A DNA stretch of 64,000 nucleotides from Kofleriaceae bacterium. GTDB lineage: Bacteria > Myxococcota_A > Polyangia > Haliangiales > Haliangiaceae. The stretch is from NCBI GenBank assembly GCA_965215005.1, contig CBDCCZ010000001.1, forward strand, positions 160,001-224,000. Direction: 5' to 3'. The notes beneath the pieces were generated by a model. The model searched no databases, had not been told where the DNA came from, and saw only the letters and a list, made by a program, of their open reading frames with translations. Shown here one piece after another: positions 30,226 through 50,749 of the stretch (position 1 is its first letter; each line of letters begins with the position of its first letter). Made by a program: the position numbers and the translations under genes.

Positions 30226-30234
30226 ACCACCACG

Positions 30235-30269: not shown

Positions 30270-30326
30270 AAGTCATCCAATTCCTCGGCGAGTCAACCCT
30301 CAAAATGTCACGGAGACATCTTCGAC

Positions 30327-30992
30327 ATGCAGATAGCTACTAGGACCGTATTTTTAAGTTTAGCTGTTTTAGCTCTTTTCGCAGGCGGCTGCCAGGATGA
30401 CACGGAAGCGAGGAGCGATCGTGGCTCCATGGACGCGGGTCTAGGACCTTCGGACATGGGTGCTGATGAGGTTGCCGGGGATCACCGAGCGCGCTGTGCT
30501 GAGTACTGCGTTGATCCGGATCCCGCGAACATCTCGTGTACAGCGCGAGACCTGGCAGGATGCGAAGGGCTCTGTGAAGAAGTGCTCGAGGGGTTCAGCG
30601 ATGAGTGCGGCGATTGCGTCGTTGACGGCATTCCAGGCTTGGTCGAGATGGTTGATTCGTGTTTCTGGGGCGATGACAGATACAGGTCGAGGCTGGATAG
30701 CTGTGCAACTAGCTGCTCTGGCAATCGGGGATCGGTATCTCCGGTCGAACTGCTCTCGGCGTGCGAAGCATTTTGTGTGGTCTCACTGAATGGTGGCGTG
30801 CAGACGTGCGTGTCGGAGGTGACTGCGTCGTGCCAAGCTCGATGCCGCGATCGGCTCGTAGACCTTCCGCGAAGCTGTGCTGGCTGCATCTTGGGTAGGA
30901 GCGCGCGGCCACGGACCACGCCGCTCTCCTCGATGCCGTGTGTTCCAGAGTATTGGGAGTCGGTCGACTCATGCTCCGACTACTGTGAATAG
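30327..30992 (+). CDS. Cysteine-rich lipoprotein
   Basis: Lipobox-like LFAGGC; two similar CxxxC-rich halves (CAEYC / CEAFC). Confidence 0.75.
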   Translation: MQIATRTVFLSLAVLALFAGGCQDDTEARSDRGSMDAGLGPSDMGADEVAGDHRARCAEYCVDPDPANISCTARDLAGCEGLCEEVLEGFSDECGDCVVDGIPGLVEMVDSCFWGDDRYRSRLDSCATSCSGNRGSVSPVELLSACEAFCVVSLNGGVQTCVSEVTASCQARCRDRLVDLPRSCAGCILGRSARPRTTPLSSMPCVPEYWESVDSCSDYCE

Positions 30993-31411: not shown

Positions 31412-32266
31412 GTGTTTCCGCTGATTCACGCGGAGAGGGCCACGTTTCCCGTCGCATTTTCGTGTCGAGTCCTGGACGTGTCGCGGAGCGGATATTACCG
31501 CTGGGCCAAGGGCGAATCATCGGCGCGCGAGCGTCAGGACGGCGAGCTTGCCGCACACATCCGAGAAATCCATCGTGAGCACAAGGGACGCTACGGCAGC
31601 CCGCGGATCCATCGCGAGCTGAGTGCTCTAGGTCGACGCGTGGGACGTAAACGAGTCGCACGCCTGATGCGTCAGGAGGGGCTTCGTGGCCGCACTACGC
31701 GCCGATTCCGGCGAACGACCGATTCGCGCCACCGTCATCGAATCGCGCCGAATCTGGTGGCGCGAGACTTCTGTGCAACGCGCATGAACGAGGTCTGGGT
31801 CGGCGATATCACGTACGTGCCGACCAGCGACGGTTGGCTGTACCTAGCCATCCTGCTGGACCTGTTTTCGCGTCGGGTGCTGGGATGGGCGATGTCGGAC
31901 CAGATCGATACCGAGCTTGCGCTCGAGGCGCTTCAGATGGCCCTGGAGCGGCGCAAGCCGGCGACAGGCCTCATCCACCACACAGACCGCGACTGTCGGT
32001 ACGCCAGCGACGACTATCAGGCCACGCTGCGCGCACACGGTATTGTGTCGAGCATGAGTCGCAAGGCTGATTGCTGGGACAACGCGGTCGCCGAGAGCTA
32101 CTTCGCGACGCTCGAGAAAGAACTGCTGGCGATAGGCTCGCTTCAGAGCCGCACAACAATGCGCATCGAGATTGCCGACTACATCGAGACCTACTACAAC
32201 ACCAGGCGTCGGCATTCGTACCTCGACTACGTCAGCCCGATCGAGTTCGAGCTGAGAGCAAGTTAA
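31412..32266 (+). CDS. IS3 transposase OrfB (DDE)
   Basis: YGSPRI, WVGDITY, HHTDR, CWDNAVAESYF, YYNTRRRHS. Confidence 0.92.
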   Translation: MFPLIHAERATFPVAFSCRVLDVSRSGYYRWAKGESSARERQDGELAAHIREIHREHKGRYGSPRIHRELSALGRRVGRKRVARLMRQEGLRGRTTRRFRRTTDSRHRHRIAPNLVARDFCATRMNEVWVGDITYVPTSDGWLYLAILLDLFSRRVLGWAMSDQIDTELALEALQMALERRKPATGLIHHTDRDCRYASDDYQATLRAHGIVSSMSRKADCWDNAVAESYFATLEKELLAIGSLQSRTTMRIEIADYIETYYNTRRRHSYLDYVSPIEFELRAS

Positions 32267-32955: not shown

Positions 32956-33159
32956 ATGTCCACCGAATCTTGGGTCTCCGTGGAGGACGTCGCGAGGCAT
33001 CTAAGCGTCGCGATGGACACGGTCTACCGTTGGATCGAGCACCGGCGGCTGCCGGCGCACAAGGTTGGCCGCCTCTGGAAATTCAAGCTCTCTGAGGTCG
33101 ACGAGTGGGTGCGAACTGGTTGCGCTGCTGAGGACGACGAGATGGAGTCCGTGCGATGA
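32956..33159 (+). CDS. Excisionase-family HTH DNA-binding protein
   Basis: [44 protein letters not shown]. Confidence 0.9.
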
Positions 33160-35852
33160 GCAAGCTCACTCTAAGCCAGCTGGCTAGTCTGCTGTTGCGC
33201 GCGTGCGACGATCTGCGCGGCAACATGGATGCCTCGGAGTACAAGGAATACATCTTCGGCATGCTCTTTCTGAAGAGGCTCTCCGACCTCTTCGATCAGG
33301 AGCGCGAGCAGCTGGCCAAGGACCTCAAGGCCAAGGGCATGGCGGACAAGGTCATCGCCGCCCAGCTCGACAACCCGGACAAGTACACCTTCTTCGTTCC
33401 CGAAGAGGCGCGCTGGTCGAAGATCCGCCACCTCAAGACCAACGTCGGTACCGCGCTGAACAAGGCGCTCGAGGCCCTCGAAGATGCAAACGTCGATGCG
33501 CTGCAGGACGTGCTCAAGGGCATCAACTTCAACCGCAAGATCGGCCAGCGCACCCTCGACGACGACACGCTGTCGAACTTCATCCAGAACTTCGAGAAGA
33601 TCCCGCTGCGCGACGAGAACTTCGAGTTCCCCGACCTGCTTGGCGCCGCCTACGAATACCTAATCAAGTACTTCGCCGACTCCGCGGGCAAGAAGGCCGG
33701 CGAGTTCTACACCCCCGCCGACGTCGTGCGGACCTTGGTCGAGGTCGTCGAGCCTCAACCAGGCATGAGCATCTACGACCCGACCTGCGGCTCGGGCGGC
33801 ATGCTCATCCAGACCCGCGACTACATTCGCGAGATCGGCGGTGACCCGCGGGACCTCTCCCTTTCCGGCCAGGAGAGCATCGGCACCACCTGGTCGATCT
33901 GCAAGATGAACATGCTCTTGCACAACATTGCGCACGCCGACATCCGGCAGGAAGACACGCTTCGCCGGCCGCAGCACAAGGACGACAGCGGCGAACTCAA
34001 GCGCTACGACCGGGTCCTCGCCAATCCTCCGTTCAGCCAGAACTACATCAAGAAGGACATCGAGTACCCCGGCCGCTTTGCCGTCTGGCTGCCCGAGAAG
34101 GGCAAGAAGGCCGACCTGATGTTCGTACAGCACATGCTCGCCGTGCTCAAGGGCAACGGCAAGATGGCCACGGTCATGCCCCACGGCGTCCTGTTCCGCG
34201 GTGGCGAGGAGCGTGAGACCCGGCGCCACTTCATCGAGCGCGGTTGGCTCGAAGCGATCATCGGATTGCCGGCGGGCCTGTTCTACGGCACCGGCATCCC
34301 GGCGTGCGTCCTGGTGCTGAACAAGAAGGACGCCCCGAAGCGCAAGCACGTCGTCTTCATCAACGCCGACCGCGACTACCGCGAAGGCAAGGCACAAAAC
34401 TTCCTGCGCGCCGAGGACATCTCTCGCATCGTCCACGCCTATCGGACGCTCACCAGCGGCGAGCACGGCGAGCTCCCTGGCTACGCTCGACGCGTCCCGA
34501 TGGAGGAGATCGACGGTGAGGACTTCAACTGCAATATCCGCCGCTACGTGGACAACGCCCCACCGCCGGAGCCCCACGATGTGCGCGCCCATCTTCACGG
34601 TGGCGTACCCAAGAGCGAGATCGACGCCCTCGAGCACTTCTGGTCGAACTATCCCGATCTCCGCACGCGCTGCTTCAAAGCTCGCCAAGGTCCGAGCAAC
34701 CAGTGCAACAGCGCCTACCTGGACTTCACGCCCGAGGTCACCGATCGCCGCGCGCTGGCCGACCTCGTGAATGGCGATAAGAGCGTTGCGGCTGCCCACG
34801 GGGTCTTCCTCAAGACCCTCGAAGGGTGGTGGAACAAGCACCTCCCGCCCATCGAGGCGCTCGCACCCAGCAATGGCCCAAAAGGAAAAAAGGCGGGCAA
34901 CGTCTACGCGCTGCGCCGAAGCTTGCTCGTTTCCATCGAGCAGACCTTCGCCGGCACCAAGCTCCTCACCGGTCATCAGATCCGCGGCGCCTTTGCCCGC
35001 TATGTCGACGAGCTCAAAGCAGATCTGAAGTCCATCGCGGCTAGCGGCTGGGGCCCCGAGCTCATTCCCGACGCTGACATCCTGGAAAGCCAGTTCCCCG
35101 AGGTGCTGGCCGAGATGGAGCAGAAGCGCACCCGCCTCGCCGAACTCACCGCAATCTTCGCAGCCGGCGACGAGGAGGACTACGAGGACGAAGACGACGT
35201 CGGGGTGCTGCCGGGCGATCAAGTCAAAGCGCTCAAGGGCGAACTGAAGGAGCTGAACGCTGCTTGGAAGACGGCGCTCAAGGAGCTGAAGACCCTCGCC
35301 ACCGACCTCTTCACCGAGATGAAGGTCGCCGGGGGTCTACCGAACGGCGTGAAGAAGAGCGACGTCACCCGCGGCATGTCGGCCAAGGATGCAGACTTCA
35401 GCGCCGGACAGGTCATTCTCGACTTGGCTGCGAAAGCCAACTGCAGCTCGGAGCTCGTCGATTCCGTTCGCGAGCGAATGCAGGATGGTCGCGAAGCGCT
35501 GGAGCGTGCCCAGGCTCGCGAGGCCCGGTTGGAACGCCACAAGGGCCTCGAAGACGAGGCCAAGCAGCTCAAGGCCGACCTCCGCGCCACCGAGAAGAAG
35601 CAGGACGAGCTGGTCGAGGCTGCCCGCGAGAAGATCGACCGAGACGAAGCGCGCAAGGTCATCATCGACCGGTTGCATCGTCTGCTCGTGCAGACCTACG
35701 AGTCGTACCTCCGTGCGGACCAGCGAGCCTGTCTTGCTGCGCTGGAGAACTTGCACGCCAAGTACGCCACGACCGCGACCGACATCGAGCAGCGTCGCAG
35801 TACGGCAACGGCCAAGCTGAAGGGATTCCTCGGGGAGCTTGGCTATGCATGA
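33156..35852 (+). CDS. hsdM: Type I R-M methyltransferase subunit with long C-terminal extension
   Basis: [30 protein letters not shown]. Confidence 0.95.
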
Positions 35853-37101
35853 AATAGTCGTGCAGCCCCTTCGAGAGTCGACTTCCCTCCGTATGGGGGA
35901 GACGATCATCGCGGCGCAATGTTCCGGAGAGGGCCTTCCAATCTATTCAGCCGACACCGGAACAGCGCCATGGAACTATTCGCAACATTGCCGCGTTACG
36001 CACCTCCGCGGTACGATTGTCATCGGTGCTCGCGGGAGCATTGGCAATCCGCGCCTTCCGTCATTCGAGAGCTTCGCGTGCACGCAGACAACGATTGCGC
36101 TTAAGCCCGACGGAAACAAATGGGACCCGAGGTTCTTGTTCTACGTTCTGAGTGCGCTGAGATTCGACGAGTTGACCGCACAGCAGGCAGTTCCGATGCT
36201 TACTGTGAACGACCTGGGGCGGATCGAGGTGCCGCGTCCGCCAAAACATGTGCAAACCAGGATTGCCGAGATCCTCTCGACGGTCGACGAGGCCATTGAG
36301 CAGACCGAAGCGCTCATCGCCAAGACGCAGCAGATCAAGGCCGGCCTGATGCACGACCTCTTCACCCGAGGCGTGACCGCGGACGGCCAGCTCCGACCAC
36401 CACGCGAGGAAGCCCCGCAGCTCTACAAGGAGTCGCCGCTGGGCTGGATCCCGAAGGAGTGGGATGTTCGGCCCCTTCGTCAGTGCCTGCTCGATAATCC
36501 GACGAACGGCATCTACAAGCCTGCAGATCAAATAGGGCGCGGCACTTTGCTGGTGGGTCAAACCTCATTCACGGAAGAGCGGTCCGTCGACTTCTCCCTC
36601 GCACGCCGCGCAGTGGTCTCGACCGATGAGGTGCGCCGCTATTCTCTGGCCGAGGCCAACATTCTTCTGTCCCGTGTCTTCGCCACCCTCGATGGAGTCG
36701 GACAGCCGACACTCGTCCCAGCGTTGCTGGAGCCGGCAGTGTACGAGTCCAACATGATGCGCCTGCGCATCGACCAAGCGAGCATCTTGCCCCGGCTGTT
36801 GTTCGAGTGGCTTCGGGGACACCGAGCTCGCCGATTGATCGTTGCAGGCGCCAATGCATCGAACCAGTCCAGCATCAACCAGCAGGTGCTGAATCCGCTC
36901 CCGATCCTAGCGCCCCCACAGGACGAGCAGGCGCTGATGCTCGAAGTCATAGAGGCAGATGACGGCCGGGCTTCTGTTGAGCGCGAAGGCCTCATCAAGC
37001 TGCGCGGCGTGAAAGCAGCCCTGATGGAGGACCTTCTCTCGGGGCGTGTGCCAGTCGCCGTTCCTGATATCACCGAGGTCAGGAGTGCGGCGAATGTCTG
37101 A
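35845..37101 (+). CDS. hsdS: Type I R-M specificity subunit
   Basis: Two TRDs with conserved helices QTRIAEIL...[10 protein letters not shown] and [13 protein letters not shown]. Confidence 0.9.
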
Positions 37102-40100
37102 GTATCTCCACGTCGAGAAGCCGTTCCTCCAGCAGCTCGCTGCGCTCGGTTGGAAGGTCATCGACCAGGGCCAGGGGTTTATCCCCTCGGACCCATCGAA
37201 GAGCCTGCGCACGAGCTTCCGTGAGTGGTTTCTCCCGGCGGTATTCCGCGACGCCGTTCGCGTCATCAACACGACGCCTGACGGAAAGCCCTGGCTTACC
37301 GACCGCCAGCTCGACGACCTGCGCGACCAGATCCTCCGTCAGCCCAACCGCACGCTGCTCGAGGCCAACGAGACGACCCAGGGGCTGTTTTTCAAGGCAC
37401 AGGTTGACCGCAACCAAGTCACCGGCGAGACCGACCCGGTCGTCAAACTCATCGACTTCGCGCACCCCGAGCGCAATCAGTTCCACGCCATCAACCAGTT
37501 CCGCATCGACACGCCGGGCTGCGTGAAGAGCTGCATCATTCCGGACATCGTTCTCTTCGTGAACGGGATCCCGCTGGTGGTGGTCGAAGCGAAGATCGGC
37601 GACCCCAACACGGCCAACCCGCTACACGCCGCCTTCGAGCAGCTCCTGCGCTACCGTAACGGTCGACAGGAGACCATCAAGGCGGGCCTGCGCGAGGGCG
37701 AACCGAGGCTCTTGTACACGAACCTGCTGCTGGTACGAACCTGCGGCGAGAAGGCCGAGTTCGGCTCGATCACCTCCGGCCACGAGCACTTCTACGCGTG
37801 GAAGGACATCTGGCCCGAGAGCAACCAGTCCTATACGCCGCCGCTGGGCGTCGAGCGGGAACAGGAGAAGCTCATCCAGGGGCTGCTCGCGCCCGCTACG
37901 CTGCTCGACGTACTACGCACCTGCACGGTGTTCATGGACACCGACTCGGGCAGGCGGATCAAGGTCGTCTGCCGCTACCAACAGTACCGCGCGGCCCGGA
38001 AAATCGTCGACCGCCTACGCGCAGGCAAGACACCGGAGTCGCGGTCGGGCGTCGTCTGGCACACCCAGGGATCCGGCAAGTCGCTGACCATGGTCTTCGT
38101 GGCCAGGATGCTGCGCGCCGCGTCCGACCTGGAAGACTTCAAGATCCTGCTCGTCAACGATCGCGTCGACCTCGAAGAACAGCTCTCGGGCACCGCAAAA
38201 CTCATCGGCGGCAAGGTCAACGTCATCGAGAGCACGGCCCAGCTTCGCGAGCACCTCAGCACCGCCGCCTCCGACATCAACATGGTGATGGTGCACAAGT
38301 TCACCGAGCGCACCGAGGCTCTCCCGGCCGCCGTCGCCCAGGCGCTCACCGACGTTGGCAAGCCGGTGCCGGATCCCAAGGTCCTCGAGGCGGCTGATTC
38401 GGGTGGCGTTCCCTACAGAGCCATTCCGTCGAGCAAGACCTTCGGCGTGGTGAACGCGTCCGACCGCATCATTCTGATGATCGATGAGGCCCACCGGACT
38501 CAGGGCTCCGACCTCGGCGACAACGTCTTCGAGGCGTTCCCCAACGCCACCCGCATCGCCTTCACCGGAACGCCGCTCATTACCGAGCAGCACGGAACGA
38601 AGCGCACGGTGAAGCGCTTTGGCGAGTACATCGACACCTACAAGCTGATGGACGCCGTCCACGATGGCGCCACCCTGCAGATCCTTTACGAGGGCCGCAC
38701 CGCCGACACGGCCATCAAGGACAAGCACGGTTTCGACACCAAGTTCGAGGATCTCTTCAAGGAGCGCACCGAGGAAGAGATCCTCGCCATCAAGAAGAAG
38801 TACGGCGCCACCGGCGACCTTCTCGAAGCCGAGAAGCGCATCGAGGCCATCGCCAAGGACCTGGTCGATCACTACATCGACAACATCCTGCCCGACGGCT
38901 TCAAGGCCCAGGTGGTGTGCCACTCCAAGCTGGCCGCCGTCCGCTACCAGAAGGCGATCCGGCAGGCGCTCGCGGAGCGCGTGGAGCGAGAGAAGCTGAA
39001 GCCCGAGCCTGATGCCGAGCTCATCGGGCGCATGGAGTTCTTGAAGGTCGGAGTCGTCGTGTCGTCGGACCCGACGAACGAGCCGGCCGCCATCACCGAG
39101 GCCCGCAAGGAAGCCAAGCGCTGGAATGTGGTCGAGAACTTCTGTCGCCCCTTCGACTTCGATGACCACGACAAGGATCTCACCGGCATCGCCTTCCTCG
39201 TCGTGTGCGACATGCTCCTCACCGGCTTCGATGCCCCCATCGAGCAGGTGATGTACATCGACAAGAAGCTGCGCGAGCACAACCTGCTGCAGGCCATCGC
39301 GCGCGTGAACCGGGTGGCGACCAACAAGCACCGCGGCTTCATCGTCGACTACATCGGACTCGCCAATCACCTGACGAGCGCGCTCTCCATCTACTCCGAG
39401 GAGGACGCCCAGGACATCCACGATGGGCTGAAGAGCGCGCTCAGCGAGATGCCCATCCTCGAAGAGCGCTACCAGCGACTCCTGCAGCACTTCATTGCCG
39501 CCGGCGTCACCAAGATCGAGGCCTTCATCAAGGGCCAGCTTGGCTCGCCCGAAGCCGACGTCGCCGTGATCCACGCGGCTGTGGGCGCGATGAAGGACAT
39601 CAAGCGCCGGGCGGACTTCGAGGTCTACCTGAAGAAGTTCCTGCAGAGCCTCAACCTGATCCTGCCGAACCCTGCCGGTCACCCGTACCGCGGGGCCGCG
39701 CGCCGCTTCGGCTACCTGCTGCGCATGGTGAAGGAGCGCTACAAGGACGACTCCCTCGACATCGCGGACGCTGGCGAGAAGGTGAAGGCGCTCATCAACG
39801 AGCACCTCATCGACCTCGGCATCAACCCGAAAATCCCACCCGTCGAGCTCCTGTCCGACGAGTTCATCTCGCACGTGCACAAGCACTCCCAGGGCAACGA
39901 CGAGGCCAAGGCGAGCGAGATGGAGCACGCCATCCGCAAGCACTGCACGGTCCACTTCGACGAAGACCCCGCCTTCTACACGAAGCTCAGCGAGAAGCTG
40001 GAGAAGCTCATCGAGCAGCACCGCGACAACTGGAAGTCGTTGTCCGACGACCTCGAACAGCTCCGCAAGGATGCCATCGAGGGGCGCACCGACGCCGTCG

Positions 40101-40408
40101 AGGGCCTCACCAAGGAGGCGACCACCTTCTACGACTACGTGCTGCAGCTCGCCTACGACGGCGCCAAGGTGCCGGCCGACGACCGGGAGCCGCTGAAGAA
40201 GCTGATGCTGCGCATCGTGGACATGCTGCAGGACACCATCGACGTGCTCGACTTCTGGAAGAAGCCCATCGAGGTGAAGAAGCTACGCGGCAACATCGAC
40301 ACCGAGATTCTCCTTGCGAACATCCCGGCGCTCAACGCTAAGCATGAGCGGCTAGCGGTCGAGCTCGTGAAACTCGCCGAGAAGCGCCACGAGGAGTTGA
40401 TCAAGTGA
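37094..40408 (+). CDS. hsdR: Type I R-M restriction subunit
   Basis: PDIVLFVNGIPLVVVEAK, WHTQGSGKS, DEAHR, FTGTP, MLLTGFDAP, QAIARVNR. Confidence 0.95.
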   Translation: MSEYLHVEKPFLQQLAALGWKVIDQGQGFIPSDPSKSLRTSFREWFLPAVFRDAVRVINTTPDGKPWLTDRQLDDLRDQILRQPNRTLLEANETTQGLFFKAQVDRNQVTGETDPVVKLIDFAHPERNQFHAINQFRIDTPGCVKSCIIPDIVLFVNGIPLVVVEAKIGDPNTANPLHAAFEQLLRYRNGRQETIKAGLREGEPRLLYTNLLLVRTCGEKAEFGSITSGHEHFYAWKDIWPESNQSYTPPLGVEREQEKLIQGLLAPATLLDVLRTCTVFMDTDSGRRIKVVCRYQQYRAARKIVDRLRAGKTPESRSGVVWHTQGSGKSLTMVFVARMLRAASDLEDFKILLVNDRVDLEEQLSGTAKLIGGKVNVIESTAQLREHLSTAASDINMVMVHKFTERTEALPAAVAQALTDVGKPVPDPKVLEAADSGGVPYRAIPSSKTFGVVNASDRIILMIDEAHRTQGSDLGDNVFEAFPNATRIAFTGTPLITEQHGTKRTVKRFGEYIDTYKLMDAVHDGATLQILYEGRTADTAIKDKHGFDTKFEDLFKERTEEEILAIKKKYGATGDLLEAEKRIEAIAKDLVDHYIDNILPDGFKAQVVCHSKLAAVRYQKAIRQALAERVEREKLKPEPDAELIGRMEFLKVGVVVSSDPTNEPAAITEARKEAKRWNVVENFCRPFDFDDHDKDLTGIAFLVVCDMLLTGFDAPIEQVMYIDKKLREHNLLQAIARVNRVATNKHRGFIVDYIGLANHLTSALSIYSEEDAQDIHDGLKSALSEMPILEERYQRLLQHFIAAGVTKIEAFIKGQLGSPEADVAVIHAAVGAMKDIKRRADFEVYLKKFLQSLNLILPNPAGHPYRGAARRFGYLLRMVKERYKDDSLDIADAGEKVKALINEHLIDLGINPKIPPVELLSDEFISHVHKHSQGNDEAKASEMEHAIRKHCTVHFDEDPAFYTKLSEKLEKLIEQHRDNWKSLSDDLEQLRKDAIEGRTDAVEGLTKEATTFYDYVLQLAYDGAKVPADDREPLKKLMLRIVDMLQDTIDVLDFWKKPIEVKKLRGNIDTEILLANIPALNAKHERLAVELVKLAEKRHEELIK

Positions 40409-41124
40409 AAGCGTCGCAAGACAACCCGCCGTGCGAGCAACCAATCGCGTACGAGGTGATTCGCAGTCGCCGCTCGACAGCGGACATCATCATCGAACGC
40501 GACGGGAGCGTGCTCGTCCGGGCGCCTGAGTGGGCCGACGACGACCAGGTCGCAAGCATCGTCGAGTCCAAGCATTACTGGATCTATCGCGGCCTCGCCG
40601 AGTGGCGGGACCTCAACGCCACCCGGGTGCTTCGCGAGTATAGGAACGGCGAGGGCTTCCTCTACCTCGGCCGAGCCTACCGGCTCCTGCTCGTCAGCGA
40701 CCGAGACGAGCCGCTGCAGCTCAAGAACGGCCGCTTCACCCTGCGCCGCAACCTCGTCGAGCAAGGTGAGCTCGCCGCAGCCAAAGCCGCCTTCCGCGAC
40801 TTTTACACCGCCAAGAGCCTCGAGCGCCTGCGCGCCCGCGTCGAATACTACGCCCCAAAGACGGGTGTGGAACCGGCCGGCGTTGAGGTGAAGGAGCTCG
40901 GCCACCGGTGGGCCTCGTGCTCACCCTCCGGCAAGCTCGCCTTCCACTGGAAGTGCATGATGGCTCCCCAGACCATCATCGACTACATCGCCGTCCACGA
41001 GCTTTGCCACCTCCATCACCGCGACCACACCGACGCCTTCTGGAACGAGGTCGACAAGGTGATGCCCGACTTCCGCGAGCGGAAAGAGTGGCTCCGCAAG
41101 AACGGCGCGGGGCTCGACCTTTGA
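40405..41124 (+). CDS. M48/YgjP (DUF45) family metallo-hydrolase
   Basis: RWASCS...IDYIAVHELCHL..H...FW; usual position after hsdR. Confidence 0.9.
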   Translation: MKASQDNPPCEQPIAYEVIRSRRSTADIIIERDGSVLVRAPEWADDDQVASIVESKHYWIYRGLAEWRDLNATRVLREYRNGEGFLYLGRAYRLLLVSDRDEPLQLKNGRFTLRRNLVEQGELAAAKAAFRDFYTAKSLERLRARVEYYAPKTGVEPAGVEVKELGHRWASCSPSGKLAFHWKCMMAPQTIIDYIAVHELCHLHHRDHTDAFWNEVDKVMPDFRERKEWLRKNGAGLDL

Positions 41125-41244
41125 CCAACCTCGCTCATGGATACAGCGCCACACCGGCACCGACTCGGAGGGCGCTATGAGCGAGATTCTCAGACAGCCA
41201 CGAGAGCCCCAGTGGGGCGGCGCGACCAATACCGCGGTGGAATC

Positions 41245-42143
41245 GTGAGCGCACACCCGCACGAAGCTGGCTTCAGGGAGTGGTCCAAGCCGCCAACGGC
41301 GACGGAGGGCCAGCGTTGTGCGAACGCCGAGAGCGTCGTGTACAACGCCATAAAGTCGTATCCCGCGTTCGCCAGCAGGAACATTGAGGTATTCGCTCAG
41401 GGCTCGTATCGAAACGGCACCAACGTGCGCGCTAACAGCGATGTCGATATCTGCGTGCGCTGCATGGACGTGTGCTTCAGCGATATTCCCAGCGGCGTCT
41501 CCCAGTCAGACGTTGGCCTCGTTGAGGGGACCTATACCTACTCCGAGTTCAAGAACGACGTTAAGTACGCGTTGAGGAACTATCTCGGAGCGGCTGCGGT
41601 CTCGCGCGGAAAGAAGGCCTTCGACCTTCGCGCGAATACGTACAGAGTCGACGCTGACGTCGTCCCGACCTTCGAGCATCGCCGTTATCGCGTCTACGAC
41701 GGGCAGTACTCCTATTTGTCGGGGGCCGAGCTGCATCCTGACGGAGGCGGTTTGATCGTGAATTGGCCGCACCAGAACTACAGGAATGGCACGTCCAAAA
41801 ACGACGCCACAGGTACGCGATTCAAGAAGCTGGTCCGGGTGCTGAAGCGACTGCGTGACGAGATGATTGCGGCGGGGAGCGCTGCGGCGAAGCCAATCCC
41901 CTCCTACTTGATCGAGTGTCTCGTCTGGAACGCCCCAACAGTGCTTTCGGCGGGGACCAGTACGCAGAGAACCTGCGGTCGATCCTGTTGCATCTCTATA
42001 CGAACACGCAAGACGACCGCACGTGCAGGGCGTGGGGCGAAGTCAACGAGTTGAAGTATCTCTTCCAAGATGGCCAGCTCTGGACGAGGGGTGGCGTGAA
42101 TAACTTCATTTCCGCGGCGTGGAGCAGCGCGGGCTTCAAATGA
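41245..42143 (+). CDS. cGAS/DncV-like nucleotidyltransferase (CD-NTase, CdnE-like), frameshifted at ~41935
   Basis: QGSYRNGTNVRANSDVD, VDADVVP, NWPHQNYRNG, PSYLIECLVWN; C-terminus (EVNELKYLF) continues in another frame after a C4 run. Confidence 0.85.
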
Positions 42144-42156
42144 TTCGACGGGCAGC

Positions 42157-42819
42157 ATGCTGAGACGATTGCATCTCTCTGCGGTCATCCTCGTCGCTGG
42201 CGTGTTCTGGGGCGGGATGCTCGTATTAGAAGGCGTGGCGGTGACGGGAGCGTTGTTGCGACCGTTCTCGACGGTCGTCGGCGCTTTGATGCTCGTGCTC
42301 GCCGCCTTCGACCTGTGGGGATGGCGATGGCGCCTTCTCCGCGGCTGGTTTGTTTTCCGGCCGGACCTGCGAGCTACGTGGCGCGTGGAGCTACAAAGCG
42401 ACTGGAAGGGCCCAGCGACGAACACGGGCGTTGGACCAATTGTCGCGTACCTCGTCGTGCGTCAGACGTTCTCCACGCTCAGCGTCCGCATGCTATCGGC
42501 CGAGTCGGCTTCTGAGCTCGTTGCGGCCGAGATCAACAAGGCGAGCGACGGTACGTACCGGCTGGCGGCGGTATATCGAAATGAGCCGAGGCTCACCGTC
42601 CGTGATCGCAGTCCGATTCACTACGGCGGGTTTGTCCTCGATGTACAGGGAGATTCGGTGACCGACCTCGCGGGCCACTACTGGACCGATCGGAGCTCGC
42701 GGGGGGAGCTGCGGACGCTGGCACGGGGGACCGCGATCGCGGGCTCTTTCGTGGAGGCGCTGAAGTTACTGCCTCCGGGACCCTGTGCGGATCCAGCGAC
42801 AGGGGACGCGCAGCTATGA
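42157..42819 (+). CDS. cap15: CBASS 2TM beta-barrel effector (Cap15 / S-2TM-beta)
   Basis: Two TM helices, then PDLRATW...VRQT...ESAS...YRNEP...IHYG...GHYWTDR. Confidence 0.85.
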   Translation: MLRRLHLSAVILVAGVFWGGMLVLEGVAVTGALLRPFSTVVGALMLVLAAFDLWGWRWRLLRGWFVFRPDLRATWRVELQSDWKGPATNTGVGPIVAYLVVRQTFSTLSVRMLSAESASELVAAEINKASDGTYRLAAVYRNEPRLTVRDRSPIHYGGFVLDVQGDSVTDLAGHYWTDRSSRGELRTLARGTAIAGSFVEALKLLPPGPCADPATGDAQL

Positions 42820-44576
42820 GACGGCACTCGATCAATCTTTTTATGTGGGGCTATCAGCCGCAGTTTCGCTCTCACTTCGAGCACCTTATGGATGCGGTCA
42901 TGGAGGAGCTCGGCGTGGACGACGCCTACGGAAAGTGCATGCTGGTCGGCGTCAAGGTTCCTGACGCCAATTCGGAACATGATGTCTGCATCGAACCCGA
43001 GGATGGTCTGTGGCCGTTGGAACTGTTCGCCGGACTACCATCCGCCGTCGAGAAGCACATCAAGAACCATCCACTACAGAACACGTTTTACGGCGACGAG
43101 CCGAGTATGCGGGACAAGCCGGAGAGCATCCGCCGCGACTCGGTACGCGAGGCGGTGCAGGAAGCACTCGGGCCTTACGACACCAAGGCTGACGTGCTCT
43201 CTTTCGCGGGGCCCCCGGCGCCTGTCGACGGCTATCACGTCGTCCCAGTGCTCCAGCTTCCTAACGCCGTCTTTGAACGCTTCCGGCCCCTTCGCGCGCC
43301 GGTGACGGAAGGCCGGATCACAGGGATTGCTGGGCTCATTCACGCGGCGGTGAAGCAAGTCCTCAGCGAGGCGCGCGACGAACTTCGGCGCCCAGATCCC
43401 GGACGATGCATCGGCGGCAGGTCCGCGTCGGCCGCGGAGATCGTGCGGCGAGCAGCATCGGACTTCATGTACACGCCTGGCATCGCAATCGGTGACAGGA
43501 GCTACGGCGGCCCGAACCTTTTCGAGCGGTTCAACTTGATATCGTCGCTGATGTACGAGGGCGCCGAGGGGACGGGCCGAATGCTCCTGGCCAACCTCCA
43601 GGGAGGCGCGGTCGAGGTTGCGCTGGAGTTCTCCGAACCGGTGCCTTTCCACGATCCGCGATGGTCTCGGAAGTTGCTACAGATGGCCTCCTCGGAGACG
43701 GCTTTGCTGGCCAACACAGAGAGCATTCTTGGCCTGGGGGACATCGCCAAAGGTGCCGACCCGTGGGCCACGCAGAACGCCTTCGAAGTCGAATTTCACG
43801 ACCACTACCACTGGAGCCTGTCGTGCGGAGACGAGGTGCTTCTCGTGAGCAGGTTCGGTGCCCCATCCTTGCCGCGCGAAAAATTCCCAAAGGCCCGGCT
43901 TCTCGACACGTTTCAGCGACTCTTCCCCGAGGTGACTGCCGCCGATATCGGCACTTTCACAGCGTTGTTCGATGTCGCCGTGGAGCAGCGGCGTGGAAGT
44001 ATGTTGGTCGTTGCGCACGACGCCAGCGAGGAGGCTACACGACTCGGTGGACAGGGGACCAGGGTCACGCCTACGAAGTTAACGCCTGAACTCTACCGCC
44101 GCGTGAGCAATATCGACGGCACCATCCTTTTAGACCCGAAGTGCATCTGCCACGCGGTGGGGGTGATCCTCGACGGTCCGGCGAACGAGGGCTGCACGCC
44201 GTCCAGAGGAGCTCGATATAATTCGGGCATCCGCTACGTCGCGGCGTCGTCGTCGCCGCGCCTTGCGGTCGTCGTGTCGGACGACAGCACAGTCGACGTG
44301 ATTCCCGTTCTTCGCCCGCGGATAAGTCGCAGCACCATCGAAGAACAAGTGGCGAGGCTCGAGGCTGCCACCGTCAATAATTACCACGAGGTGATCGCGT
44401 GGCTCGACAAGCACCGCTTTTACCTCGATCAATCGCTCTGCGAGCGAGCGAACGCCGCGCAACAGAAGCTCGATGGCGTGCCGAGGGAGGAGGGGGAGAT
44501 AAGGGTTCTGCGGCCAGAATTTCGGCCTAACCCTCGCTGCACCGCCGACTACTTCGAGTCGGAGGGCAGCGCATGA
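42816..44576 (+). CDS. Diadenylate cyclase (DisA_N/DAC) domain protein with long N-terminal region
   Basis: RGSMLVV...IDGTILLD...GVILDG...RGARYNSG...VVVSDD (variant DGA/RHR motifs). Confidence 0.8.
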   Translation: MRRHSINLFMWGYQPQFRSHFEHLMDAVMEELGVDDAYGKCMLVGVKVPDANSEHDVCIEPEDGLWPLELFAGLPSAVEKHIKNHPLQNTFYGDEPSMRDKPESIRRDSVREAVQEALGPYDTKADVLSFAGPPAPVDGYHVVPVLQLPNAVFERFRPLRAPVTEGRITGIAGLIHAAVKQVLSEARDELRRPDPGRCIGGRSASAAEIVRRAASDFMYTPGIAIGDRSYGGPNLFERFNLISSLMYEGAEGTGRMLLANLQGGAVEVALEFSEPVPFHDPRWSRKLLQMASSETALLANTESILGLGDIAKGADPWATQNAFEVEFHDHYHWSLSCGDEVLLVSRFGAPSLPREKFPKARLLDTFQRLFPEVTAADIGTFTALFDVAVEQRRGSMLVVAHDASEEATRLGGQGTRVTPTKLTPELYRRVSNIDGTILLDPKCICHAVGVILDGPANEGCTPSRGARYNSGIRYVAASSSPRLAVVVSDDSTVDVIPVLRPRISRSTIEEQVARLEAATVNNYHEVIAWLDKHRFYLDQSLCERANAAQQKLDGVPREEGEIRVLRPEFRPNPRCTADYFESEGSA

Positions 44577-44738
44577 TGTTGTCGACGTGGGGCTTGCGCG
44601 GTTTGTTGCGCGATCATAAGACGCGCGTGCGGAGCCTTCCAGTACCCCAACTAGGATCTCGCCAGTTGCTGGTGAACCGTTGGACCTACGCGGGCCGTCA
44701 GCTCCACGCTTAGCGATCAACCGTCCCGACCACGTTAT

Positions 44739-45107
44739 CTAGAGATCGGCCTGTTGTCGTTTCCTGAGCCGTCGAAGCAGAGTTTGAACCGAGTTCGGGG
44801 AGAGTCCGAGTCGGTGGGCAGCTTCTGCTCTAGATAGTCCCTCCGTGTATATCAGCGTGTACACGTCGCGCTCGCGCTCCGGCACCTCGCAGCCACGGCG
44901 GCGGATGAAGTGGTCCATCCGGTCTTTGTCGTAGGGGAGGGGCCGCCCATGCCGCCGTAGGGGTGCCTGGGCCAAATGGATCTCGGCCCGGAGGCAGGCA
45001 AGCTCATGGGGCGATGGCGCAGGGGCGGTGACAGGGGGTGACGTTCCCTTACTACGATTACTACAGTGTTCGTCGCCCGAGGTCCGCCGTAGTCCAGCAG
45101 TGTCCAT
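44739..45107 (-). CDS. Small sigma-70 region-4-like HTH protein (start uncertain)
   Basis: ERERDVYTLIYTEGLSRAEAAHRLGLSPNSVQTLLRRLR. Confidence 0.6.
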   Translation of the reverse strand: MDTAGLRRTSGDEHCSNRSKGTSPPVTAPAPSPHELACLRAEIHLAQAPLRRHGRPLPYDKDRMDHFIRRRGCEVPERERDVYTLIYTEGLSRAEAAHRLGLSPNSVQTLLRRLRKRQQADL

Positions 45108-45165
45108 GCGAAGCTCGGCGTCCTCGGCGTGGGGTCCGCGTCGCTCCGCCTGGGACTCTTCGTTC

Positions 45166-45192
45166 CGCGGGTTCGAGTCCCGTCCGCCCCGC
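45166..45192 (+). other. att site: 3' fragment of a tRNA-Asp-like gene
   Basis: CGCGGGTTCGAGTCCCGTCCGCCCCGC = T-arm plus acceptor strand resembling bacterial tRNA-Asp; no D or anticodon arm upstream. Confidence 0.8.
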
Positions 45193-45200
45193 AAATCAGG

Positions 45201-45234
45201 AAGCCCGGAAGTCCACGAGACTTCCGGGCTTTTT
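45201..45234 (+). terminator. Rho-independent terminator
   Basis: AAGCCCGGAAGTC-cacga-GACTTCCGGGCTT followed by T run. Confidence 0.85.
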
Positions 45235-45325
45235 GTCGTCCGTGGGTACGGGGAGTGGGGAGGACTGTAGCAGCGATTGTAGCGGTGCATCCGCCGCTCA
45301 TGGTGGCGGATGTTGTCACCCGCCT

Positions 45326-45601
45326 CTAGGCGCAGTTCGCGACTTCCTCACATTTCGCCCATTTCGGCGACCCGCTGAGTGTCGTGTAGAGGTCGATGAC
45401 GGCCTTTGGCGGGCGGTGGGTTACCCATCGCAGCACGTCAGGTCGTGCACCATCCTCGATGGCTAAGGAAACGAATGTCCGTCGCGGATCGTGTTGGCGA
45501 CGCGGGCGAAGCCCGACGCGGACGCAATCTTCATGAACGCGCTTCAGCATGTGTCGCTGCTCCGGTGTCTTCACGGCGGGACAGGATTTAGAGTTCGTCA
45601 T
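45326..45601 (-). pseudogene. Tyrosine integrase C-terminal remnant
   Basis: RRQHDPRRTFVSLA...WVTH...DLY resembles the HxxR/H/Y boxes; no N-terminal part visible. Confidence 0.65.
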
Positions 45602-47657: not shown

Positions 47658-50390
47658 CTAGCGCGTGGACTTAGTGCTGAGCTTCGCGGGGGTCAGGACG
47701 ATGTCATGACCGTGCACGAGGCGTGGGGCGAGGTTCTGGGTAGAGGCCGGCAGGGCATACGGGTCGGCTGCAGCATAGTCGACGGTGTAACCGAGGTCGG
47801 CGAGGTCGGCGATCGTCAGCATGGAGAGCGGATTGATGCCTTCAGACAAGTAGCCGGTCATAAGTTCATTGACGAAGGTTGCTTCCCGCCAGTGCGATTC
47901 CCGCGTTCCTCCACCACCGGTGTTGGCTGCGGGAACACTGTCCTCGAGGGGCAGCGACGCGGCGGTGCGCAGCGCGATGTACTCTTCGACGCCGAGGGGC
48001 GCTGTGTAGCGCGGATCGTACTCCTCGCTGTTGGGGTCGGCCCCTTCAGCAACGGTTCCTGTCAGGAAGCCATTGCCCGCCCACAAGCTTCCAATGCCGA
48101 GCACGTGGCCCATTTCATGAAGAATGACCGCGTCGAGGCCGCCCTCGTTCTCGAGATCGGCTAGATCAGCGAGGTCGAACCGCATCACGCCGTAGGTTGG
48201 AAGCGGCAAGCGTTCGCCGTTGCTTCCGTCGGCGCGGAGTAGGCATGGGCCTGCAGAGCCGAGAACGCTACCTGGGCCATCGATAGGCTCGCCGACGGCG
48301 CTAACCACGAGATCGTCCACGAAGCCATTAAACGGCGGTTCACCATTGCACGAGAAATCGGCTGGTAGCTCTGCGCTGCCCGACGACAGAGCGGCAAGGT
48401 CGCCGACGATTACTTCGCTCCAGCGGTCGGCGGCGATCTGAAAGGCCGCGCGTTGCGAGTCGGAGAGCTGGTCGTTTCCGAAGACGACAACGATGTTGAA
48501 ACGATTCGGGTCGTCGATAGCGATCGTGGGGAAGGCTTTTTCAACAACGGTGCCGGCGGAGTTGGTGACGGAAACCGTGACTACGTAGAAGCCGGGCTGG
48601 TCCCACGCATGCGTGGCGGTTACGAACTCAGCACTCTCGCATGGCAGCGGCTCGGTGGTGCCGTCGCCAAAGTCGATCTGGCAAGAGATTGGATCGGCGG
48701 ATACGGCGAACAACTCATAAGTGATTGGCGTGCCGGGCTCTGCTACGCGAACGCTTTCCGCGAACTCCTCTATGACCGGGGGCTCGCCTGCTTCTGGGAT
48801 CTGAGGAGGCGTAATGGTATTGGTATAGGTGCCGGCGTCGCCGGGCTCATAGGCGCTGACGACGACGACATACTCCGTGTTCGCCTCCAGGAGCAGGCGG
48901 ACGCGCGACTTTCGATTGTCTCCAAAGTCGTCATTGGCAACGAGAACGTTCTCGAGCGGCTGGTTGGGATCAAACGGTGCGCGATAGACGTGAATGTAGC
49001 CGTCGTAATCCTGCTCGCTGAGGACCGTGTAGAAACCGCGCTCCTCGGTGGTGAAGGGGCACAGGTCATACGCGACGAGCCCGTCGATTAGGCCAGGACC
49101 GGTGCCTTCGGGGCGGGCGAACTCAGGTCCGCCCACAGTCGTGCCTTCGCAGATGACCGTGCCCGGCGGGGGCGGCGGGGGCGGCGGCAGCTCTTTGGCC
49201 CAATACGGACTCGTGCTGAAGAAGAAGGGCGGCGGCAGGTCGATGAGTGGCGTCGAGTCGGCCGCAACCGTGTCGCCGTTGTCGAGGATGTTGGCTTTGT
49301 AGATCAAGCCTTCTTGGGCGTACGTGAACGTCATGCCGTCGGCCGTAATGAACGGGTGGTCAATCTCCTCCCCCTCGAACAGCAGACCAAGCTCGCCCAA
49401 CGCCGGCGTCAGGATGACGACCGCGGCTCGCGCGTCGAACACCTCCTGGAACATGATGCGCTCGCCGGCAAAGCTGGCGCTGGGGTTTGATAGAGCTGTC
49501 GTGGCGCCCGGAGCTCCCGCATAAACGACCGAGCCACCACTGCCATCGGTCGCGAAGCTCACAATGATCGGTGCATCGAACACTGCAATGGCCGCGGGAC
49601 CGTCGGCAGCAAAGTAGACGTTCGAACCGCTCCCATCGAGCGATGGCTGGCGCTGCTCGAGAGGTTGGCCGCCGACGGTGATGGAAACGTTGCCGGTCTC
49701 GATCTCGCCGGTGCTGCGGTCGAGTCTAGCGACGACATGGTCGGTGGTACCGGACTCGGGATCGAACGTCTGCCATGCGTGCGTGGCACCATCGAGCGCC
49801 ATCGACACATGGAGCTCGTCTTGATCCGTGCTCGGCAGTGTGAATACCTCGCCGGCAGTGCCAGCGAGGGAGCCATCGACATCTAGCAAGAAGACGTCGA
49901 AGTCGCCATCGTCGGACTCTGCTGCGAACGTGACGAGCCCGCCATCGACGCTCACAGCGACGGAATCGATCGCGCGTTCCCCTCTGTAAATCAGCCGGCC
50001 TGGCAGCTGAAAGTCTCGCACCGTCGCGAGCCGTAGCCAGTACTGGCGGAAGTACCGGCCGAGCTCAAACTTTTGCACATACGCTAACTTGCCCCGTGGC
50101 GTGAACGCTTCTTCTAGGTCTTCAGAGAGGTCGCTGGCCCCGCGCGAAAACGCTGCGCGGTCGGGCCGTCTAATTGGGATTGGCAGGTCTACGCGCGCAT
50201 CTGCTTGCGCCGCCGTGAGTTCGGCGGAAGACGGCAACGGCGCGGCGCTGTCGAGGTCTTGAGTGGTCAGCAGCGGCTCCTCAGAGCCTTCCGCCCCAAC
50301 TCCCTCCGCTGGAGGGGTGGAGGAGCTCCCCGTGCACGCACTCAAATACATCATGCTCCAGAGGAGCATTAAGCGTTTATGCATGCGCAT
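47658..50390 (-). CDS. Lipoprotein: propeller-like region + PKD + leishmanolysin-like zinc metallopeptidase
   Basis: YLSAC lipobox; IDFGDG PKD; HEMGHVLGIG...SHWRE...ELMTG. Confidence 0.85.
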   Translation of the reverse strand: MRMHKRLMLLWSMMYLSACTGSSSTPPAEGVGAEGSEEPLLTTQDLDSAAPLPSSAELTAAQADARVDLPIPIRRPDRAAFSRGASDLSEDLEEAFTPRGKLAYVQKFELGRYFRQYWLRLATVRDFQLPGRLIYRGERAIDSVAVSVDGGLVTFAAESDDGDFDVFLLDVDGSLAGTAGEVFTLPSTDQDELHVSMALDGATHAWQTFDPESGTTDHVVARLDRSTGEIETGNVSITVGGQPLEQRQPSLDGSGSNVYFAADGPAAIAVFDAPIIVSFATDGSGGSVVYAGAPGATTALSNPSASFAGERIMFQEVFDARAAVVILTPALGELGLLFEGEEIDHPFITADGMTFTYAQEGLIYKANILDNGDTVAADSTPLIDLPPPFFFSTSPYWAKELPPPPPPPPGTVICEGTTVGGPEFARPEGTGPGLIDGLVAYDLCPFTTEERGFYTVLSEQDYDGYIHVYRAPFDPNQPLENVLVANDDFGDNRKSRVRLLLEANTEYVVVVSAYEPGDAGTYTNTITPPQIPEAGEPPVIEEFAESVRVAEPGTPITYELFAVSADPISCQIDFGDGTTEPLPCESAEFVTATHAWDQPGFYVVTVSVTNSAGTVVEKAFPTIAIDDPNRFNIVVVFGNDQLSDSQRAAFQIAADRWSEVIVGDLAALSSGSAELPADFSCNGEPPFNGFVDDLVVSAVGEPIDGPGSVLGSAGPCLLRADGSNGERLPLPTYGVMRFDLADLADLENEGGLDAVILHEMGHVLGIGSLWAGNGFLTGTVAEGADPNSEEYDPRYTAPLGVEEYIALRTAASLPLEDSVPAANTGGGGTRESHWREATFVNELMTGYLSEGINPLSMLTIADLADLGYTVDYAAADPYALPASTQNLAPRLVHGHDIVLTPAKLSTKSTR

Positions 50391-50749
50391 AAATAGCATA
50401 CAGCGCAGCACGCGAGAGTACCGCAGTGCTAACTGTCCCTAACGTGCCGACCGTAGCGCTCTCCGCCGCGTCGTTCCACGAAGGCGTGACGCGCCGCGTC
50501 ATCTATCGAGCTACACTTCTGAACCCCGATGGCCGAGCTAGAGGCGCGTCCTAACGAGGCGTGCGTTTGGAGCTACCTGCGCATCAGCCACACCGTGACG
50601 CGCTCCGTCTGGAAGCCGCCGGGTGAGCCAATGCGCATGTTGAGTCGTGAATTTCGAGCCGGCCTGGCGTTACGGCAGCCCGCGAGAACCGAGCGAGCGC
50701 TGAAGCCCCTCCGGTCACGCGAGCCCGCCGTACCAGCCCATGCACAATT

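Follow-up and report, generated by a model that had tools for sequence, protein, structure and literature searches.

The 64,000-nucleotide stretch of DNA analysed here (the window; positions 160,001 to 224,000 of contig CBDCCZ010000001.1 in the Kofleriaceae bacterium assembly GCA_965215005.1) carries three adjoining genes for a CdnE-like CD-NTase (cGAS/DncV-like nucleotidyltransferase), a Cap15-type effector, and a protein with a diadenylate cyclase (DAC) domain that is known as DS-2C or CdaG. We are confident that this locus belongs to the class in which DS-2C accompanies a cyclic-oligonucleotide-based antiphage signaling system (CBASS), and it is rather likely to be a variant of the published DS-2 system with Cap15 as effector, that is, a type I CBASS pair joined by the DS-2C/CdaG diadenylate cyclase. 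The assignment follows from a match above cut-off to the family model NF053872, the presence of the DACNG and DACNH domains and of a DAC fold, the profiles of the Cap15 and cyclase genes, and the CdnE relatives found in the PDB. Such an architecture is already in print as DS-2 or as an association of CdaG with CBASS and is not a new system, since DS-2C/CdaG has been described with CBASS in the DefensePredictor study (Science 2026, PMC13092281), by Ragucci et al. (2026; bioRxiv 10.64898/2026.08.10.743927), and by Nabhani et al. (2026; bioRxiv 10.64898/2026.08.10.743972). The features of the locus and of the operon upstream are collected in Table 1.

Table 1. Features of the DS-2C locus and of the adjoining upstream operon, in window coordinates.
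Feature	Position	Strand	Source
CdnE-like CD-NTase, N-terminal part, 231 codons, GTG start	41245..41937	+	PADLOC PDLC00801
1-nt deletion, GCCCCA (one base fewer than relatives), shifting the CD-NTase frame	41932..41937	+	DNA alignment A2
CdnE-like CD-NTase, C-terminal part, 68 codons, next frame	41937..42143	+	PADLOC PDLC00801
Cap15-type 2TM-beta effector, 220 aa, intact	42157..42819	+	ORF list and sequence, Pfam, PADLOC
DS-2C / CdaG protein, 586 aa, intact	42816..44576	+	NCBIfam NF053872
DACNG domain, residues 10-218, presumed sensor	42843..43469	+	Pfam PF21752, E 1.8e-52
DACNH domain, residues 234-337, putative degenerate DAC-like fold	43515..43826	+	Pfam PF21750, E 5.4e-24
DAC catalytic domain, residues ~390-490	43983..44285	+	Pfam PF02457, Foldseek
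IDGT motif of the DAC domain	44112-44123
GARYNS motif of the DAC domain	44208-44225
Type I restriction-modification operon and YgjP-like peptidase, directly upstream	33156..41124	+	Pfam
hsdM	33156-35852	+	Pfam
hsdS	35839-37101	+	Pfam
hsdR	37046-40408	+	Pfam
YgjP-like peptidase	40405-41124	+	Pfam

The CD-NTase coding sequence ends at 42143 and is followed, after a gap of 13 nt (42144-42156), by the open reading frame (ORF) of the effector, whose TGA stop codon is overlapped by the ATG of the 586-residue ORF (ATGA). The first-pass annotation, made from the sequence alone, had described this succession and treated the three genes as one unit. Its positions, gap, overlap, and gene families stand, and the idea of a three-gene unit is borne out by the profile assignments and by the CD-NTase of an intact relative, which matches the CdnE cyclic dipyrimidine synthases of the PDB (E 1.7e-81). 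What had gone unnoticed is that the CD-NTase is not one ORF, its frame being split by a single-nucleotide deletion. A promoter and terminator scan of 40300-45400 returned no promoter-like sites and three terminator-like sites against 3.6 expected, and is uninformative as to whether the genes form an operon.

In the effector, the Pfam family Cap15_CD_rec is matched at residues 69-186 (54.5 bits against a cut-off of 31.2), and the PADLOC two-transmembrane (2TM) effector model PDLC00694 is covered at positions 1-204 of 208 (E 3e-69). Direct reading of the protein reveals two hydrophobic stretches within residues ~8-55, so that the layout of two transmembrane segments and a beta-barrel receptor domain is present. 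The Cap15 of the type I CBASS CdnE-Cap15 is said to go back to work by Duncan-Lowey and colleagues in 2021, and the name CdaG reportedly originates with Galperin in 2023.

The third gene product matches the NCBIfam equivalog NF053872 (DS2_3_antiphage) over its entire length (positions 1-576 of 576) at 685.7 bits against a cut-off of 630, a search of the window's own genome giving 685.5. Its domains stand in the order DACNG, DACNH, DAC; for the last of these the Pfam model PF02457 reached 26.9 bits, just below its cut-off of 27, when the C-terminal half was scanned alone, and the assignment is backed by a fold search. In an AlphaFold2 model of the full protein (mean predicted local distance difference test, pLDDT, 81.9), which ends in a helical tail, all 17 Foldseek matches in the PDB with E<=1e-3 were DisA or CdaA; a profile of the DS-2C alignment compared with solved structures gave no match by sequence, these two enzymes being found by fold search only. 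A separate model of residues 1-355 (pLDDT 89.7, predicted template modelling score 0.90) was compared with known structures by VIA-align, whose Z values here are middling by the tool's own scale: the four best matches, at about residues 164-351, were DAC domains (2fb5, Z 7.4; DisA 3c1y, Z 7.2; MsDisA, Z 7.1; DacM, Z 7.0), and residues 9-198 resembled Roadblock/LC7, GAF, and IclR ligand-binding domains (Z 5-6.5). From these models we read DACNH as a probable degenerate DAC-like fold, in line with a remark of Nabhani et al. (10.64898/2026.08.10.743972), and DACNG, loosely, as what may be a small sensor-type alpha/beta domain of the Roadblock/GAF sort. A predicted complex of DS-2C with CdnE, computed for the pair of a close relative (L001 of the locus sample described below; alignments A4 and A5), scored 0.00 and bears neither way.

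The IDGT and GARYNS motifs lie in the 586-residue protein as the first-pass annotation had reported (within NIDGTILLD and SRGARYNSGIRY), and it had considered them variant, so that the product might differ from that of other DAC domains. Comparison with homologues does not favor that view. The residues D434, G435, G465, R467, Y468, N469, and S470, which include the catalytic Asp (D434) and Arg (R467), are invariant in 26 homologues collected with HMMER (alignment A1); among 79 translated relatives G[AS]RYNS is found in 77 and the DG triplet reads DGT in 43, DGA in 31, and DGS in five, counts that are biased because the pattern used to find the loci itself contains RYNS. As judged from these alignments, IDGT/GARYNS is a family-wide signature and no peculiarity of this gene, and DS-2C enzymes of Bacteroidota are reported to synthesize 3'3'-c-di-AMP (cyclic di-adenosine monophosphate) in vitro (10.64898/2026.08.10.743927, section 5). 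The Asp of IDGT is residue 433 in an Enterobacter homologue (L016) and thereby the residue of the published D433A mutant, the Enterobacter protein having 581 aa and AGSII as its first five residues after the start, both as in the published E. coli protein. In the same numbering the Arg of GSRYNS is 466, and the published R468 is not placed exactly.

The split CD-NTase gene

The 899 nt of the CD-NTase gene (41245..42143) are divided over two frames whose parts share base 41937. Both parts match the PADLOC model PDLC00801, the N-terminal one at positions 6-230 of 295 (E 6e-95) and the C-terminal one at positions 227-294 of 295 (E 2.7e-17), and the start is consistent with relatives of 299 aa. 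The DNA alignment places a gap of one base, in the window only, at AACGC-CCCAAC against all seven relatives aligned, and tblastn finds the two parts abutting in one frame in eight of eight close genomic relatives (L001, L002, L003, L005, L006, L007, L008, and L011); the CD-NTase of the single viral locus (L084) is likewise in one frame. The catalytic positions GS, DVD, and a third Asp are all contained in the N-terminal fragment (QGSY, SDVDI, DADV), where G52, S53, D65, D67, and D138 are invariant (alignment A5); the final 68 codons lie beyond the frame break. The CD-NTase is therefore present in the cluster in split rather than intact form, and the window's own genome was found to contain no other PDLC00801-like CD-NTase. 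We considered and dismissed programmed -1 frameshifting at GCC CCA ACA, as the relatives have the gene in one frame and the site does not have the X XXY YYZ form of a slippery heptamer.

The frameshift is probably real in the organism. Over 41137-44576 the window has 0 differences to an independently assembled contig of a public run, which is probably the window's own source, so the deletion is not an artefact of a single assembler, and since five long ORFs of the window (those of the RHS protein, hsdM, hsdR, the M8 peptidase, and DS-2C, ~16.5 kb in all) are unbroken, indel errors appear to be infrequent in the assembly. Disruption of the CD-NTase is also seen in two relatives, by an in-frame deletion in L004 and by reduction to a 34-aa remnant with a stop in L009. 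These observations speak against the alternative that a sequencing or assembly error is responsible and that the three-gene DS-2-type system of the window is in truth intact, an alternative that is unlikely and yet has several points in its favor. The lesion is the only one and is located in a short C run, the genome assembly consists of 62 contigs with a completeness of 92.8%, and the frameshift is known from one sample at a word depth of only ~4, the public run being no independent sample. The fragments are moreover undamaged otherwise, being free of stops and as conserved as their neighbors: identity to the six closest relatives (L001, L002, L003, L005, L006, and L007) is 75-80% for the N-terminal part (q1-231), 62-71% for the C-terminal part, 71-77% for Cap15, and 69-76% for the DAC protein. 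The lesion is thus either recent or an error, and a sequencing error would look the same. Most likely, the CdnE arm in this genome is dead or only recently inactivated, and at most the pair of DS-2C and Cap15 is still working.

Relatives of DS-2C and their neighborhoods

Among 8000 candidates scored, 685 matched the DS-2C family with E<1e-5. For the study of neighborhoods a sample with one genome per species was used, in which 407 loci match the search pattern and 405 of them encode a relative; the best 80 of the 405 were taken, and five were left out because the sequence ended too near the DAC gene (L026, L027, L048, L060, and L068), leaving 75 usable loci. Neighboring ORFs were called with a simple codon-usage filter, dropping those of <100 aa, within limits of ~2.7 kb upstream and ~1.7 kb downstream. 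They were scanned with PADLOC (135 ORFs at 1e-5, 150 ORFs at 1e-25, and 30 unexplained neighbors at 1e-3) and with Pfam (96 ORFs at 1e-4 and 20 further ORFs), and all scans were combined with tblastn of the window proteins. For L072-L080, PADLOC was applied to nine ORFs only (and to three L072 ORFs at 1e-25), the other neighbors being covered by Pfam alone, and the CdnE of L011 was scored from tblastn. Counts of CD-NTases are based on the PADLOC cyclase models, because the Pfam SMODS model misses the CdnE of the window (17.1 bits against a cut-off of 26.5; the search of its own genome likewise gave no match).

An intact CD-NTase was found in the cluster in 36 of the 75 usable loci and some CBASS part in 45, values close to the 15 of 30 DAC homologues published as adjoining CBASS (PMC13092281). 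The linkage to CBASS that the first-pass annotation had staked its proposal on is thus found elsewhere, and the co-occurrence it had proposed to count, that of CD-NTase, Cap15, and DAC, is seen intact in nine of the 75 genomic loci and in one viral locus (L084), the sole relative among 2.9 million viral contigs. With this recurrence, the trio of genes exceeds chance. The neighborhoods are classified in Table 2.

Table 2. Gene content beside the DS-2C gene in the 75 usable loci.
Neighborhood	Loci	n
CdnE (PDLC00801) + 2TM (PDLC00694) + DAC, as in the window	L001, L002, L003, L005, L006, L007, L008, L011, L013	9
Decayed forms of the window type	L004, L009	2
Patatin (PDLC00755) + CdnE (PDLC00788) + DAC, E. 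coli type	L015-L022, L025, L028-L030, L032-L036, L039, L042-L044, L046, L047, L050, L070	25
CdnE (PDLC00794) + DAC + 2TM (PDLC00686)	L031	1
DncV-like CD-NTase + patatin	L076	1
Type II CBASS parts, CD-NTase not confirmed	L072 (TIR-STING, E1-E2, JAB); L075 (E1-E2, Cap15, JAB)	2
2TM downstream of DAC	L038 (CdnE 2.7 kb upstream, other strand); L045 (CapP and weak CapH upstream)	2
2TM (PDLC00686) as sole CBASS gene beside DAC	L037, L040, L041	3
CD-NTase >=3 kb away	L014, L024	2
No CBASS gene found near DAC	remaining loci	28

Among the loci of the window type, L006 comes from Myxococcus sp. CA023. Within the E. coli type, L032 shows only a CdnE beside the DAC gene. The two decayed forms differ in what has been lost: L009 keeps 2TM and DAC genes with a mere remnant of CdnE, and in L004 a 362-aa ORF (L004:5916-7004) fuses CdnE 1-186 to Cap15 87-204 through an in-frame deletion that removes the C-terminus of CdnE and the transmembrane part of Cap15, next to a full-length DS-2C. 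Many of the 28 unlinked loci are situated among housekeeping genes or in other defense contexts, such as L077, in which a PtuA-like ATPase and a Piwi protein are encoded next to DS-2C.

A quick maximum-likelihood tree of 75 full-length proteins contains a clade of 47 rows (Shimodaira-Hasegawa-like approximate likelihood ratio test, SH-aLRT, 100) in which all CBASS-linked forms of Pseudomonadota, Myxococcota, and others are gathered, and a distant clade of 25 rows, 22 of which are unlinked. The window falls in a 16-row clade (SH-aLRT 100) with ten rows of the CdnE (PDLC00801) and 2TM (PDLC00694) type (the nine loci and the window itself), the two decayed forms, and L010, L012, L014, and L023; the three Moraxellaceae rows with a 2TM gene only form a single clade (SH-aLRT 100). 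Partner labels change 14 times on the tree against a mean of 39.5 when shuffled; since relatedness alone yields such clustering, we read no more into this than modular inheritance of the trios. By record title the window's clade comprises Myxococcota, Pseudomonadota, Verrucomicrobiota, Planctomycetota, and others, some of them metagenome bins with unchecked labels, and this range points to horizontal transfer. In the 47-row clade every CD-NTase that accompanies DS-2C, be it with a patatin or with a 2TM effector, falls to the models PDLC00788, 00801, and 00794, which cross-hit one another; the DAC is accordingly tied to a family of CdnE-like CD-NTases and not to a type of effector.

DS-2C is also maintained where the CD-NTase is not. 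Across the 16 loci of the window's clade and the window itself, all 17 DS-2C ORFs are of full length, and seven of these 17 have a broken or absent adjoining CD-NTase (the window, L004, L009, L010, L012, L014, and L023). No PDLC00801-like CD-NTase was found in the genomes of L010 and L023; that of L009 has the 34-aa remnant only, and in that of L012 the nearest CdnE-like CD-NTase is ~50 kb from DS-2C. In two Psychrobacter genomes (L037:7001-9350 and L040:7001-9350) the DAC gene and a convergent 2TM gene stand alone between housekeeping genes and purL, and in Acinetobacter rudis (L041:7001-9374) the same pair lies between a GreA-like gene and a UG5 reverse transcriptase. Searches of these three genomes detected no CdnE-like CD-NTase and no canonical DAC. 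The genome of the window, by comparison, encodes two CdaA-type enzymes (CdaA_N and DAC domains; G000:C32:30096-30458 and G000:C18:228161-228514), one of them followed by a YbbR/CdaR gene, which makes c-di-AMP a housekeeping signal in this host, and two canonical DACs are found in the genome of L010 as well.

Several loci of the sample have further features. In L012 (L012:3382-11397) the full-length DS-2C is placed between the PglX and PglZ genes of a bacteriophage exclusion (BREX) system, with no CBASS gene adjoining. In the Enterobacter locus (L016:9141-11524), a second CBASS, composed of a patatin (PDLC00758) and a cyclase (PDLC00821), directly follows the DS-2 trio. The DS-2C of Rhizobium ecuadorense (L050:7001-8712) is broken by a stop after 317 aa, its C-terminal part matching separately from 7894. 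In L045 (L045:2319-6643) a weak CapH and a clear CapP, transcription regulators of CBASS, lie directly upstream of DS-2C and a 2TM-beta gene downstream, and CdnE-like genes of that genome are on contigs C138 and C144.

Candidate roles of the diadenylate cyclase

The validated DS-2 of E. coli consists of a patatin phospholipase, a CD-NTase, and a DAC (PMC13092281). The window shares with it the DS-2C equivalog (NF053872) with the same domain order (DACNG-DACNH-DAC, as described for DS-2C by Ragucci et al., who gave it this name; 10.64898/2026.08.10.743927) and the same catalytic Asp, a CdnE-family CD-NTase in the cluster, and a location in a defense island. It differs in having a Cap15 2TM-beta effector instead of a patatin, in a gene order of CD-NTase, effector, DAC instead of effector, CD-NTase, DAC, and in its CD-NTase, which is frameshifted, which reaches 164.3 bits against the NF053871 cut-off of 350 (a score lowered by the truncation), and which PADLOC places in PDLC00801 and not in 00788, that is, in another subfamily. 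The arrangement of CdaG beside a CD-NTase and a 2TM-beta effector reported as a bioinformatic observation by Nabhani et al. (Fig. 4g; 10.64898/2026.08.10.743972) is exactly that of the window, with no difference in kind; to it the window adds a broken CD-NTase and a host with two CdaA genes. Measured against type I CBASS of the CdnE-Cap15 form, the CD-NTase and effector are ordinary members by profile (PDLC00801 and PDLC00694), the differences being the co-inherited third gene and the broken frame. The remaining comparison is with PanDA and Panoptoo, which pair the minimal DAC PanS with the 2TM-beta protein PanE, and with Panoptes, in which mCpol is paired with a 2TM-beta protein. A DAC-fold cyclase likewise adjoins a Cap15-like 2TM-beta effector in the window, and the Moraxellaceae pairs without CD-NTase resemble these systems in gene content. 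The cyclase of the window, however, has 586 aa with DACNG, DACNH, and a helical tail against ~150 aa in PanS; its unit includes a CD-NTase, as in nine intact relatives, whereas the guard systems have two genes; and negative regulation is disfavored for DS-2 by the published mutant result considered next.

The first-pass annotation had offered the DAC as a decoy, a guard, or a second input. Of these, the second input is possible, and we lean slightly towards a positive signal rather than a guard, given that the DAC mutants D433A and R468A of E. coli DS-2 lose defense (PMC13092281, text and Table S11), where loss of a repressing decoy should give toxicity. On such a reading DS-2C would be a sensor-bearing cyclase built from DACNG, a degenerate DACNH, a catalytic DAC, and a helical tail; its c-di-AMP would be a positive signal required for the response and controlled by the N-terminal domains; and it would cooperate with a CdnE-family cyclase in loci that have one and otherwise act on the 2TM-beta effector directly. 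A more far-reaching form, which is tentative and doubtful, holds that DS-2C and a 2TM-beta effector are a self-sufficient c-di-AMP immune module, with the DAC as phage sensor through DACNG/DACNH and CdnE as a later add-on that can be lost. It would explain the Moraxellaceae pairs, the lone DS-2C genes in defense islands, and the broken CdnE beside an intact Cap15 and DS-2C. If it is true, the module must, in hosts with CdaA, separate immune from housekeeping c-di-AMP, whether through quantity, location, or a different product formed in vivo. In Haloferax there is a precedent for a CBASS effector that responds to host c-di-AMP without a cyclase of its own (bioRxiv 10.1101/2025.06.19.660554).

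Several considerations weigh against assigning DS-2C a positive role. The published experiments concern other forms of DS-2 and none of them the Cap15 type or this locus, and both 2026 preprints call the role of DS-2C open (10.64898/2026.08.10.743927, 10.64898/2026.08.10.743972). DS-2C is active in vitro without a trigger, which fits a constitutive guard-type producer at least as well as a sensor (10.64898/2026.08.10.743927). Where CdaA is present, activation of Cap15 by ordinary c-di-AMP would poison the host itself, and a positive role therefore needs a threshold, local signaling, or another product. The 2TM gene of the Moraxellaceae is convergent with the DAC gene and shares no operon with it, the link being adjacency within a two-gene insert between housekeeping genes.

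If the protein acted instead as the cyclases of Panoptes, PanDA, and Panoptoo do, constant c-di-AMP would hold Cap15 off until phage sponges or nucleases released it, and CdnE would be an ordinary activating input. We regard such a guard or decoy as rather improbable here, even though the DAC product does hold 2TM-beta effectors off in PanDA and Panoptoo (10.64898/2026.08.10.743972, 10.64898/2026.08.10.743927), the in vitro activity of DS-2C needs no trigger, pairs of DS-2C and 2TM-beta genes exist without a CD-NTase, the two genes overlap by ATGA in the window, and a broken CdnE would be tolerable under this logic. The loss of defense in the E. coli mutants tells in the other direction, the available text making no mention of toxicity, with the reservation that the effector there is a patatin and not Cap15 (PMC13092281). 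So does the size of DS-2C, whose 586 aa include two N-terminal domains where minimal cyclases have ~150 aa; its occurrence with patatin, 2TM, and Bacteroidota TIR-STING partners speaks against a tailored pair of effector and repressor; and the host already produces c-di-AMP through two CdaA enzymes. Loss of function in the whole system, with Cap15 and DS-2C intact only because recently orphaned, is unlikely too, at about the same level as the self-sufficient module. It would account for the CdnE frameshift in a genome without another PDLC00801-like CD-NTase, and the deletion in L004 shows that decay does occur in the clade, but the full-length DS-2C in all 17 members of the clade, including the seven without an intact adjoining CD-NTase, the retention of DS-2C in L010 and L023, whose genomes were found to be wholly without a PDLC00801-like CD-NTase, and the Moraxellaceae pairs kept across two genera do not suit a system in decay. 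Least probable of all, in our judgment, is that DS-2C protects a signal by flooding the cell with c-di-AMP, saturating phage sponges and nucleases so that the CdnE signal survives, with no host protein as target. Being independent of effector type, it might suit the mixture of patatin, 2TM, and TIR-STING partners, and it fits the requirement of DAC activity for defense (PMC13092281); it has no direct support and leaves unexplained why the linked CD-NTases form a single family and why DS-2C, alone or paired with a 2TM-beta gene, occurs in genomes without a CdnE-like CD-NTase.

The question of what a second cyclase of unrelated fold adds to CBASS immunity is raised in three 2026 papers (PMC13092281, 10.64898/2026.08.10.743927, 10.64898/2026.08.10.743972) and belongs to the family rather than to this locus, the window being a poor model because its CD-NTase is broken. 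To that question we add the single CdnE-like family found across effectors, the three Moraxellaceae genomes with DS-2C and a 2TM-beta gene, and a host with two CdaA enzymes. The leads that follow are the tie of the DAC to one CdnE-like family in the 47-row clade, its preservation where the CD-NTase has been lost, the two-gene pairs with 2TM-beta in genomes without another DAC or a CdnE-like CD-NTase, and its coexistence with housekeeping CdaA in some hosts, which constrains models of plain activation by c-di-AMP.

Genomic surroundings

Within a defense island, the system adjoins the downstream end of a type I restriction-modification operon on the same strand, and the order hsdR, YgjP, CdnE, 2TM, DAC recurs in L011. 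The hsdM ORF is 898 aa long; its HsdM_N and N6_Mtase matches end by residue 467, and the ~430 C-terminal residues match no family. Between this operon and an RHS locus further upstream lies an IS3-family transposase gene (HTH_21 and rve; 31412-32266). At the RHS locus (23708-30992), an RHS-repeat protein of 1973 aa carries a Tox-REase-7 domain at its C-terminus; the small ORFs of 199 aa (sub-threshold HEAT_2 only) and 221 aa (no family above threshold) that come after it could be its immunity genes. No tRNA gene was found in the window, and hence no tRNA-linked island boundary. Downstream of DS-2C, on the reverse strand, 44739-45601 contains an ORF of 183 aa, which matches nothing but a sigma-70 region 4 helix-turn-helix at its C-terminal end, and one of 91 aa without a Pfam match; both calls are uncertain because long ORFs overlap them in other frames. 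Farther along on the same strand, 47658-50411 encodes a protein of 917 aa that combines a PKD domain with a leishmanolysin-like (M8) peptidase region.

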